A stretch of DNA of 64,000 nt, taken from sequence record NC_055712.1; one strand, 5' to 3'. Of this stretch, positions 60,593 through 63,849 are shown piece after piece. The notes under the pieces are model-generated. The model was not told where the DNA came from. It saw only the letters and a program-made list of their open reading frames with translations, and ran no database searches. The position numbers and the translations under genes are program-made. This stretch comes from Escherichia phage phT4A. Within the stretch, counting starts at the first letter, position 1, and the number at the start of each line of letters is the position of its first letter.

Positions 60593-60878
60593 AGATTTCT
60601 TCGAAATCCTCACAATCAGGCAAATACGTTTCACAGAAGGTGCAAAGCGTAAAGAATGCAGGTTGACGAATACCAGGATTATCCGGTAGATACATCCAGA
60701 AGGTGTTAGCAAACACGATGAATGTTTTCAGGTTTTCGGTGGTAATTTCGCTAACACCATCATACCCGGATTGATTGATCGCGCGTTGCAGTGGCACCTC
60801 GTACTGTTCGCAATAGTCGGCATAATGATCGCTTGTTACAAGGCCATTAGCCATTTTAATCAAATCGACGATTTTCAT
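60585..60878 (-). CDS. hypothetical protein (97 aa)
   Basis: ORF track. Confidence 0.55.
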   Translation of the reverse strand: MKIVDLIKMANGLVTSDHYADYCEQYEVPLQRAINQSGYDGVSEITTENLKTFIVFANTFWMYLPDNPGIRQPAFFTLCTFCETYLPDCEDFEEIYG

Positions 60879-61210
60879 GATTTTACATATTCCACTTTAA
60901 CAGGTTTTGCAACAAATTTATCTTTGGTGCGCCCATGACCATTACACAGGTCACATTCTTTGTTGAAATCTTTCATATCTTCGACCCATCCAGAATCTGG
61001 CAACCCAGACGGATATGCGTTATAACGAATGGTTTCATAACCTTTTCCGTTGCATTTCGGGCAAACATGAGGACGTTCTTTTTTAGCAGACTCTGCCAGT
61101 TCGCGAAGGGTGGTAGAACTACCATAAGCCCGACACATGTTTTCAAAGTCTTTTAAAGTCATTCTATAAACATCAATGACGTTATATTTTTTGCCGGATG
61201 GTTTAGCCAT
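60875..61210 (-). CDS. protein with DnaJ-type CxxCxGxG zinc-finger pair (111 aa)
   Basis: CPKCNGKGY and CDLCNGHGR; start moved to ATG 61210. Confidence 0.55.
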   Translation of the reverse strand: MAKPSGKKYNVIDVYRMTLKDFENMCRAYGSSTTLRELAESAKKERPHVCPKCNGKGYETIRYNAYPSGLPDSGWVEDMKDFNKECDLCNGHGRTKDKFVAKPVKVEYVKS

Positions 61211-61220
61211 AATATATTTC

Positions 61221-61361
61221 TCACTTAAAGAATTTTTTGATGAAAGAGATAGCAAGGCCGATACCAAAGAAAATTAAGTAACCTTTTCCGTCACCGTGCG
61301 CCAAAACATAGAGTGAGCTGCCGTATGCGATGAGTTCTGCGATGTTCATTAAGTTTCTCAT
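61221..61361 (-). CDS. small membrane protein (46 aa)
   Basis: Manual: MRNLMNIAELIAYGSSLYVLAHGDGKGYLIFFGIGLAISFIKKFFK; strong SD AAGGAGG. Confidence 0.45.
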   Translation of the reverse strand: MRNLMNIAELIAYGSSLYVLAHGDGKGYLIFFGIGLAISFIKKFFK

Positions 61362-61618: not shown

Positions 61619-61657
61619 AATATAACAAAGCCCCTGCACGAATGCAAGGGCTTTTTT
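61619..61657 (-). promoter_or_regulatory. hairpin-embedded early promoter cassette (PeSL-like)
   Basis: Minus strand: AAAAAAGCCC-TTGCAT-17 nt-TATATT; near-duplicate of the 57208 cassette. Confidence 0.6.
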
Positions 61658-62196
61658 CAGTTTTTCAACATCCAAAGTTGCGGAGGACAATCTTTAGAAG
61701 CGATTAGACGATCCAGGCGGGACATAACCCGACGATAACCGTCGTATTCAAAATTAATTTTTGGTGGAACGTAGTTGACCTGGATTGTTTTTCTGTTAGC
61801 TAAAGAAACATACTCAGGGATCACCGTTCGCAACCGTATAGCGATCACTGGCTTCTCTTCGCCTTCGTTAAAGAACATTTGAACAGTTATAGGACAAGCA
61901 AAGATTTTACCATTTACCCGACGATAAACAATAACTTCCTGTGTCCCTTCTGTTTTGGCCTTCACCGCGTAGGTTAGAACATAACACGAATAATGATTTG
62001 CTAGACTCATCATGATATCGCGATAAGTTTCAATATCTTTTTTAATCGATACTGAACGGTCTTTAAAGCGATCTGCAATGTGGTCAGCAGTAGCCGCTAC
62101 CTTGATTGTATACCAGTCACCTAACGCGCTAGTAAACGCCTCGCTAACTTCTTTTCGTACACTGTTAACAAGATACATTAAACGTGTTCTGTTCAT
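61657..62196 (-). CDS. hypothetical protein (179 aa)
   Basis: Start moved to ATG 62196 (SD GAGGA). Confidence 0.6.
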   Translation of the reverse strand: MNRTRLMYLVNSVRKEVSEAFTSALGDWYTIKVAATADHIADRFKDRSVSIKKDIETYRDIMMSLANHYSCYVLTYAVKAKTEGTQEVIVYRRVNGKIFACPITVQMFFNEGEEKPVIAIRLRTVIPEYVSLANRKTIQVNYVPPKINFEYDGYRRVMSRLDRLIASKDCPPQLWMLKN

Positions 62197-62203
62197 ATAA
62201 TCC

Positions 62204-62827
62204 TCACTGATTTTTGAAGTATTCGATCTGACGCAAACGCTTTTCAGCGGCGGCTTTCGAATCGTATTCACCAAGTTCTTTTGTGTGATCGTGATTCAAA
62301 ACAACCCACTTATCGCCACGCTGTTCAATGTGTTCTGTAATATCTTTTAACGACTTATCCAGATCCAGTGATTCAGCCTCTTCACAGATAATAGTCAAAT
62401 CCACGGGCAGTGTCAACAACCTTTTTACTCCGCTGATATCATCAAGCATCGAATCGTATGCAAGGGTTACGTGCGGTTTGTAATCCGGATAATCGTATGT
62501 TGCGCCAGCATCAATAGAATCTTTGAAACGGCTATGCAGGTATTCAGATTCCAGGATCCCTACGATAGTGCTACCGTATTTTGTGTCCCACTTTTCAACA
62601 TCAACCAGTTTAGCAGGTTCTGTGATGTCCTGTTGCGGGAACAAATCAACCGTTTTCCGGCTGTATACGATCGTTGTATGCATCTTTTCGGCTGAAACAG
62701 CATTCTTTGTGATACCTAATGTCTTTTGAACATTTTTCAAAGCCTCACATGAAGCCTGATCGAATTTAGCACACATGTAGATACCAGGATCTACAACAGG
62801 TTTTGTGATTTCAAGAAATGATTTCAT
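62204..62827 (-). CDS. 2H phosphoesterase (LigT/cyclic phosphodiesterase fold) with a short C-terminal extension
   Basis: Two H-x-T motifs, MHTTIVYS and PHVTLAYD, about 72 aa apart; start moved to ATG 62827. Confidence 0.75.
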   Translation of the reverse strand: MKSFLEITKPVVDPGIYMCAKFDQASCEALKNVQKTLGITKNAVSAEKMHTTIVYSRKTVDLFPQQDITEPAKLVDVEKWDTKYGSTIVGILESEYLHSRFKDSIDAGATYDYPDYKPHVTLAYDSMLDDISGVKRLLTLPVDLTIICEEAESLDLDKSLKDITEHIEQRGDKWVVLNHDHTKELGEYDSKAAAEKRLRQIEYFKNQ

Positions 62828-62840
62828 AAAACACCCCAAT

Positions 62841-62860
62841 AAAAAAGGGGCCGAAGCCCC
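62841..62860 (-). terminator. rho-independent terminator
   Basis: Minus strand: GGGGC-TTCG-GCCCC then TTTTTT. Confidence 0.7.
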
Positions 62861-62878
62861 TTTGTAATAAATTTGTTT

Positions 62879-63151
62879 TTACGCTTCTTCGCCAAAGTCG
62901 GCTTCATCTTCCGCGCCTTTTTCGACTTCAACGGAAGGGATCAGAGCGGATACCGCGCCAATCACTGCTTCTGGGGTTACTGGCTGGCTTGCGTCAATAC
63001 CCAGTACCGAACACAGGTCGGACAGAAGTTGACGATGAACAGAGAGTTCACTTTCTTTTTGCGCGATTACTTCGTTCAGATCGAATGCGCGGCCTTTCAG
63101 TACCAGTACTTCATTTTGCAGTTTTTGAATATCAGACATTTTATTACCCAT
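62879..63151 (-). CDS. hypothetical coiled-coil/acidic protein (90 aa)
   Basis: ORF track. Confidence 0.6.
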   Translation of the reverse strand: MGNKMSDIQKLQNEVLVLKGRAFDLNEVIAQKESELSVHRQLLSDLCSVLGIDASQPVTPEAVIGAVSALIPSVEVEKGAEDEADFGEEA

Positions 63152-63153
63152 TG

Positions 63154-63849
63154 TTAAAATTTAAAAGTATCGAGCACTTTGCTCTTTAGTTGTTTCAAAG
63201 TACCTTCGTTAGTGATGATACTATCTCCCGGTTGAGGTGTCAAACCTTTTTCCGTGGAATGTTCATCAACAATTCCGGTATCTTTTACAATAAACACAAA
63301 CTTAGCACCCAAGCGTTTCAGGTATTTATATTCGTGTTCCTGACGACAGTCAGTTACCAGAAGATGATTGTATTCGTCACCAGCATATTTATTGACGAAT
63401 CTTTCCAGTGTGTAACGAACCCAAACCGTGTTATCATACTTGCATACGATATCAGTTCCAAACACTTGCATCAAGCGTCTGATACTCCAGGGAGTATCGT
63501 TACTCATAATCAGATTATCAATATCATCAGGACTATAAACAATATTGTATCCACGTTCTTTGAGGATTTCAAGCCCGATTTTGAAAATATTTAGAACATC
63601 TTCATTAGACATCACAAGAGGTTTCTCTCGATCACCTTCGTAAAAAATAGCATCCGGATCAGAATATTTTCCTTCAACCAGACTACGAATGTATGGTTTA
63701 GCGTAACCATATCGCTGCATTGCTACTCTTAGCGTTCTTTTGATACCAAATGCCAGTGCTTCACACTGAACATCATTGTACGCCTCTTGAATAAATTTAG
63801 CAACCGTATCTTTACCAGTTCGCTTTTTTCCACTAATCACATAAATCAT
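63154..63849 (-). CDS. 1: deoxynucleoside monophosphate kinase
   Basis: MIYVISGKKRTGKDTVAKFI parallels the T4 gp1 N-terminus (..SGVKRSGKDT..) as recalled; 231 aa vs 241 aa. Confidence 0.8.
   Translation of the reverse strand: MIYVISGKKRTGKDTVAKFIQEAYNDVQCEALAFGIKRTLRVAMQRYGYAKPYIRSLVEGKYSDPDAIFYEGDREKPLVMSNEDVLNIFKIGLEILKERGYNIVYSPDDIDNLIMSNDTPWSIRRLMQVFGTDIVCKYDNTVWVRYTLERFVNKYAGDEYNHLLVTDCRQEHEYKYLKRLGAKFVFIVKDTGIVDEHSTEKGLTPQPGDSIITNEGTLKQLKSKVLDTFKF

Follow-up and report, generated by a model that had tools for sequence, protein, structure and literature searches.

Introduction

Acb1 of phage T4, the product of gene 57B, was shown by experiment to be a cyclic-oligonucleotide nuclease (PMC9117128), and the roles of its catalytic tetrad, its base-stacking aromatic residues, the adenine-specific E141 and the lid residue W147 were described by Hobbs et al. 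in the same work (PMC9117128). In T4 and RB14, the genes are transcribed in the order 4, 2, 3, 1, 57A, 57B, followed by the internal protein genes. Within the Acb1 structural group, the 2H enzyme PDE-9 of Burkholderia phage BCSR5 (9Q2G/9Q2Y) shows that the lid can shift to the N-terminus (bioRxiv 10.1101/2025.08.21.671373). Here we analyzed the gene found at positions 62204 to 62827 of a 64,000-nucleotide stretch of Escherichia phage phT4A (NC_055712.1), referred to below as the window; all features located in the window lie on the minus strand. A first-pass annotation had proposed this gene as an Acb1-like candidate acting against CBASS, the anti-phage signaling system based on cyclic oligonucleotides, with RNA end processing as the alternative. 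The gene, called acb1 below, is very probably the orthologue of T4 57B in a Slopekvirus-type phage, with an extra C-terminal module fused to the enzyme, and from this we infer its activity and its anti-CBASS effect.

The acb1 product is an Acb1-family phosphodiesterase

The protein carries an Acb1-type 2H phosphodiesterase core at residues 15-162 (62342..62785). The Pfam family PF23474 (Acb1) matched residues 15-159 over profile positions 2-142 of 144 with E=2.1e-47 and 160.9 bits, against a gathering cut-off of 27, and phrog_755 matched with E=1.8e-49. The closest relative with a solved structure by sequence was the Acb1 of Erwinia phage FBB1 (7t26, E=3.6e-20), aligned over residues 15-162. 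An AlphaFold2 model of the full protein was built on 22 homologues, with a mean predicted local distance difference test score (pLDDT) of 79.7. A Foldseek search with this model placed the FBB1 structures 7T27 (E=7.8e-13) and 7T26 (E=2e-12) at the top, FBB1 Acb1 being the best match among solved structures both by sequence and by fold (template modelling score, TM, 0.79 on the target). The next-best fold match was the BCSR5 phosphodiesterase, at about 20% identity, and then came LigT of E. coli with E=8e-5, which puts Acb1 ahead by seven to eight orders of magnitude. The 2H fold foreseen in the first-pass annotation is borne out at the level of the superfamily by Foldseek and by the two HxT motifs, which LigT and PF13563 have in common with the protein, whereas the ligand-contact residues of Acb1 are absent from LigT. 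That annotation had also named, as what would refute its Acb1 proposal, a lack of similarity beyond the generic 2H motifs combined with a lack of cyclic-nucleotide cleavage; on sequence, the similarity to Acb1 does exceed those motifs.

The two motifs were located at H50-T51-T52 in MHTTIVYS (62672..62680) and at H119-V120-T121 in PHVTLAYD (62465..62473), equivalent to H44/T46 and H113/T115 of T4. Both had been recognized beforehand at a spacing of about 72 residues; the motifs stand, but the histidines are 69 residues apart. In the alignment with T4 57B and FBB1 Acb1, the T4 residues correspond to those of phT4A as Y12>Y17, H44>H50, T46>T52, W74>W80, F107>Y113, H113>H119, T115>T121 and E141>E152. 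Of the nine residues with a functional role in T4 Acb1, eight are thus retained, the exception being W147, and H50, T52, H119 and T121 are invariant in the 22 homologues. The T4 protein (NP_049750.1) shares with the phT4A protein the Pfam family, the HxT/HxT tetrad, the stacking Y, W and F/Y, the adenine-reading glutamate and the place after gene 1 and 57A. The two differ in overall sequence (about 38% identity), in length (152 residues in T4 versus 207 here, with an N-terminus 5 residues longer and a C-terminal module of 45 residues added) and at the lid, where T4 W147 is a lysine.

The order of genes in the window is gp3, gene 1, a 57A-like chaperone gene and acb1. Gene 1 encodes a deoxynucleoside monophosphate kinase (63154..63849; Pfam DNMK, E=9.5e-55), and the putative 57A-like tail fibre chaperone gene (62879..63151; weak GP57 match) lies directly 5' of acb1. 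The first-pass annotation rightly put the gene two positions downstream of gene 1, 57A being the gene in between, but its claim that this order differs from that of T4 was mistaken: 57B of T4 and RB14 has the same place, separated from gene 1 by 57A. Since the gene order is the same, with acb1 filling the slot that 57B holds in T4 behind gene 1 and 57A, acb1 is the positional orthologue of T4 57B. The next gene is ipI in T4 and an unrelated ORF (open reading frame) of 179 residues here (61657..62196; phrog_7718), which adjoins acb1 both in relatives that have the module and in relatives that lack it.

By all the sequence, fold and synteny comparisons made, except at the lid tryptophan, the protein is an Acb1-family 2H phosphodiesterase. 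This identity follows from the family profile, the match with a solved Acb1, the fold match, the ligand-contact residues and the positional orthology, and on these same sequence and fold data the first-pass proposal of an Acb1-like anti-CBASS candidate holds. With the catalytic and ligand-contact residues intact in the alignment, the enzyme would remove the cyclic-oligonucleotide signals of CBASS. The bases of the signal would stack on Y17, W80 and Y113, adenine would be read by E152, and the H50/T52/H119/T121 tetrad would cleave the 3'-5' bond without metal via a 2',3'-cyclic phosphate intermediate. We propose that, as a result of this cleavage, the CBASS effector would never be activated.

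The gene and its public records

A single ORF fills positions 62204..62827 and encodes 207 residues, from an ATG start codon (62825-62827) to a TGA stop codon (62204-62206). The positions given in the first-pass annotation coincide with this ORF; the strand, which it had left unstated, is the minus strand. A putative ribosome-binding site, GGGGTG, was read 4 nt 5' of the ATG (62832..62837). A TTG at 62839, four codons upstream, was considered as an alternative start and ruled out because the homologues all open with the identical MKSF at the ATG. Full-length homologues covering at least 80% of the protein were found in 219 phage records; the ORF is genuine and its motif and family signal lies far past chance.

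The stretch 62204-62827 is 99.9% identical to Klebsiella phage Roth22 and at least 95% identical to about 120 further phage records, most of them from Klebsiella phages with genomes near 175 kb. The exact 207-residue protein is present in the public records of Escherichia phage phT4A, KP15 and KP27. In Klebsiella phage CPRSA, adjacent products of 145 and 81 residues (UQJ95078.1 and UQJ95079.1) replace the single 207-residue protein, the gene being apparently split. The identification as Acb1 is already known, as UniProt names the identical protein "Anti-CBASS protein Acb1" and at least one Slopekvirus genome paper (PMC13577281) also makes the assignment; at NCBI the identical protein is named "RNA ligase" or "hypothetical protein". 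Our literature search found no study testing a Slopekvirus or RB43-type Acb1, nor are these phages mentioned in the supplementary material of the survey of 2H phosphodiesterases. The Acb1 call itself changes little, T4-like phages being expected to carry Acb1 and UniProt already naming the sequence so: the protein is an ordinary orthologue of Acb1 whose variant architecture is undescribed and of modest interest.

The lid and the C-terminal module

The equivalent of the C-terminal lid comprises residues 149-162 (EEAESLDLDKSLKD; 62342..62383), in which E152 corresponds to T4 E141 and K158 to T4 W147. Nearly all members of the subfamily have this lysine, whether they carry the module or not; the FBB1 lid has LEW where LDK is found here, and no aromatic residue occurs in residues 149-166. 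In the alignment, the protein lacks the C-terminal lid tryptophan that closes over the ligand in Acb1, the one Acb1 trait among those compared that it does not share. We considered W170 of the module as a stand-in for the lost tryptophan, short relatives ending in W at that alignment column. This candidate was discarded: in Yersinia phage JC221 and in the metagenomic protein P0013, that W belongs to a frameshifted, stop-containing remnant of the module. No description of the lid change or of the fused module was found in a literature search. The lysine-for-tryptophan lid may be the sign of a subfamily that differs in the range of its signals, a point of relevance to decoy sensing of the Panoptes type.

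Residues 163-207 (ITEHIEQRGDKWVVLNHDHTKELGEYDSKAAAEKRLRQIEYFKNQ; 62207..62341) extend past the end of the characterized Acb1 proteins in the alignments with 7t26 and T4 57B, and the solved chain of FBB1 Acb1 ends where they start. This is the C-terminal extension of about 45 residues that the first-pass annotation had noted and left uninterpreted. Modelled alone, it is predicted to form three beta strands and one helix with a pLDDT of 92.3. The predicted fold bears some resemblance to the N-terminal DNA-binding domains of the AP2/lambda-integrase type. The module matches phrog_3684 and is distantly DUF2188-like: DUF2188 (PF09954) matched weakly (E<=1) in 27 of 61 homologous modules, the best at 3.3e-6. 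The module of the window gave no match in Pfam or NCBIfam, a word-indexed homologue search with the module alone returned nothing, and its profile gave chance-level matches only against PDB sequences.

When 1.84 billion cluster representatives were searched exhaustively with the module in HMMER, 223 matched at E<=0.001. Among the best 149 of these 223, 40 proteins are shorter than 100 residues; in the others the module is terminal, at one end or the other, or internal, and some have two copies. The Acb1 core profile run against the same 149 revealed no further fusion of Acb1 with the module. Stand-alone phage proteins with the module span 46-96 residues, and genes encoding 65-66 residues are found among tRNA genes in Ackermannviridae. 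The small phrog_3684/DUF2188-like proteins, such as orf00220 of Shigella phage Ag3 (65 residues), show 43-57% identity to residues 163-207 and the same fold of three strands and a helix; they are free-standing and often lie in tRNA clusters, whereas the module is fused here. The genomic context of one stand-alone protein, P0028, was uninformative. Pfam domains were assigned in 102 module proteins, with portal domains in 8 of them (Phage_portal_3, 7, and Portal_Mu) alongside Peptidase_S78_2, S77, S78, XkdF, Mu F, ART-PolyVal, InPase, DUF5661 and DUF5662, so that the partners belong mostly to the capsid-interior and polyvalent-protein repertoire. Four of the ten proteins with an N-terminal module are head maturation proteases by PHROG, and in Klebsiella phage MK54 the module stands at the N-terminal head of a protease-like gene adjoining the decoration and major capsid genes. 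In a viral fold library, it was also found in small phage proteins, cytidylyltransferase-like proteins and polyvalent proteins. Judged from this distribution, the module is an independent mobile domain, separate from the Acb1 core. It may serve as an accessory domain for binding or localization, to nucleic acid or to a virion component, and not as a catalytic part, and among the roles considered for the module we regard this as the most likely one. The fusion thus concerns a widespread, selected and uncharacterized phage domain, the other carriers of which are mostly capsid-interior proteins.

Slopekvirus phages and Pseudotevenvirus phages of the RB43 type have the full-length fused form, and relatives at 60-79% identity lack the module in an identical synteny. 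One metagenomic relative has lost it by a clean deletion of about 125 nt. In Yersinia phage JC221, a remnant of the module is left (874-1040), in which the frame shifts by 1 nt after ...ITEH and the Gln codon of RLRQIE is replaced by TAG; because P0013 ends identically, genuine decay is more probable than a sequencing error. The module-less relatives with the same synteny, the deletion and the remnant together make the fused form look ancestral for the clade and lost more than once. The ratio of nonsynonymous to synonymous substitution rates (dN/dS) was 0.05 in the module, against 0.10-0.12 in the core, when the window was compared with RB43 or leE, ratios that are approximate since synonymous sites are near saturation. 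By this measure, the module is under purifying selection where it is retained, and some relatives survive without it despite its constraint elsewhere.

Alternative functions of the enzyme and of its module

In place of signal cleavage, the protein could be a LigT-like enzyme for RNA end processing, a 2',3'-cyclic phosphodiesterase or 2'-5' ligase working alongside the phage RNA ligase and polynucleotide kinase. The 2H fold, the Foldseek match to LigT and the "RNA ligase" label of many GenBank records, inherited from phrog_755, agree with such a role, but PF13563 (2_5_RNA_ligase2) reached only 14.8 bits (E=0.031, residues 97-131 only) against its cut-off of 27, compared with 160.9 bits for Acb1. 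The base-stacking residues and the adenine-reading glutamate specific to Acb1 are conserved, the positional orthologue in T4 is the nuclease characterized experimentally (PMC9117128), and phage 2H domains of this kind are not linked to RNA ligases (Iyer et al., PMC5512222). On its sequence, the protein is not a member of the LigT family, and the RNA end processing with RnlA/PseT offered as the alternative in the first-pass annotation finds no support in the profile scores; we consider it highly improbable. A different question is whether an Acb1 with K158 and the module has a retuned specificity, the altered lid and the module together sparing the Panoptes decoy 2'3'-c-di-AMP or reaching other signals, with the module as part of the substrate gate. 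The lid of Acb1 is C-terminal and its W147 stacks on the ligand (PMC9117128), while here the residue is a lysine and the module starts within 5 residues. In addition, Group 3 2H phosphodiesterases vary in the position of the lid and in the use of 2'3'-c-di-AMP, and Acb1 triggers Panoptes (bioRxiv 10.1101/2025.08.21.671373). Against this, the same study found specificity to be set by the core and not by the lid (bioRxiv 10.1101/2025.08.21.671373), and K158 is equally kept in close relatives without the module, so the lid change and the module are uncoupled. A domain that is found alone and in dozens of unrelated architectures is also a poor fit to a gate made for one enzyme. A role of the module in the substrate gate is therefore unlikely, and we give little credence to the retuning as a whole.

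The more specific form of a localization role would be that, in the Slopekvirus/RB43 clade, the module targets Acb1 to the capsid or tethers it to DNA, so that the enzyme is loaded into the head, injected with the genome and active before phage gene expression. The Pfam partners of the module (portal, prohead proteases S77/S78/XkdF, MuF, ART-PolyVal and InPase), its place on head maturation proteases, as in MK54, and its likeness to AP2/integrase DNA-binding domains would fit, and, in a proposal of Iyer et al., the 2H domains of portal and MuF fusions are injected to degrade defence nucleotides (PMC5512222). The phT4A protein resembles those fusions (Iyer et al. 2017, PMC5512222) as a phage 2H domain joined to the capsid-interior repertoire and differs from them in its partner, a small module with no portal or MuF domain. 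A 57B orthologue was detected in CsCl-purified virions of a Jiaodavirus with 18 and 17 spectra, above the cut-off of the authors (PMC13119998), and a gp57B homologue in particles of Morganella phage MP1 (PMC5384007). However, the module is absent from both of these orthologues, and they could plausibly be carried over, the dNMP kinase also being in the MP1 sample and 153 proteins in that of the Jiaodavirus. In LIMEstone1, moreover, the stand-alone module protein was not flagged as a confirmed structural protein. The N-terminus gives weak evidence of another kind, its MKSFLEI resembling the MKTFKEF of T4 IPI and RB14 Ip5. In residues 1-14 (MKSFLEITKPVVDP; 62786..62827), M1, K2, F4, E6, K9, P10 and D13 are kept across the subfamily, and residues 1-11 are predicted to be flexible (pLDDT <50 in the AlphaFold2 model). 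When the T4 internal-protein consensus MKT(F/Y)(K/Q)EF was compared, no (L/I)xE prohead-protease site was seen after MKSFLEI. Scanning the whole Roth22 genome for the N-terminal motif gave one other ORF, of 77 residues in the helicase region and annotated 'DNA helicase', and no internal-protein family with the motif. A literature search for virion proteomes of Slopekvirus or RB43-type phages returned none. Head loading by way of the module is thus possible but rather unlikely, and the virions of the two other T4-like phages hint that packaging of Acb1 is perhaps more general. If the proposal is true, the enzyme would enter together with the phage DNA and clear the CBASS signals ahead of all phage gene expression; and if the module loads or tethers cargo, this Acb1 would offer a simple two-part model for pre-packaged phage counter-defence enzymes.

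Three observations touch on these comparisons. The virion 'DNA-associated protein' listed as 'RNA ligase' in PMC13119998 is the 57B/Acb1 orthologue, VMC263_165 of Klebsiella phage ValerieMcCarty03 (7051-7506). Residues 495-589 of the cyanophage Pam3 portal (8hds_A) give a weak Acb1-like 2H match with both HxT motifs (E=0.029), which fits the portal-2H fusions of polyvalent proteins. Stand-alone module genes in the tRNA clusters of Shigella phage Ag3 (3019-3216) and Klebsiella phage T765 (3016-3216) encode products starting with MKTFGDFIAE and MMKTFGEFLTE, respectively, like the MKTFKEF of T4 IPI and RB14 Ip5.

Annotation and neighbouring genes

The GenBank record of Roth22 places 'anti-CBASS protein acb1' on an ORF of 85 residues (59038-59295 in the window) and 'RNA ligase' on the true Acb1. 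The 85-residue ORF was examined as a candidate Acb1 and rejected: it matched only DUF7415 and phrog_3954, with no PDB relative and no support as Acb1 or Acb2, and the label looks misplaced. Because Acb1 is mislabelled "RNA ligase", as in many records of therapeutic Klebsiella phages, and the Roth22 label stands on another gene, anti-defence genes cannot be counted reliably in these phages.

Between 57A and acb1 there is a terminator-like GC hairpin with a T run after it (62844..62863), and a second one lies 3' of the 179-residue ORF (61627..61654). The two hairpins bracket acb1 and the 179-residue ORF as a pair, for which no promoter was recognized. A few genes 3' of acb1, a NUDIX hydrolase gene (59691-60098; E=1.3e-14) is kept in its place in relatives. 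An ORF of 130 residues (60875-61267) contains two CxxCxGxG motifs and gave a weak match to the central zinc finger of DnaJ, at 24.3 bits under the cut-off of 32.7. The ORF at 58159-58740 carries a GmrSD_N (DUF262) domain (E=9.4e-19), which forms the N-terminal part of type IV restriction enzymes directed against modified DNA.
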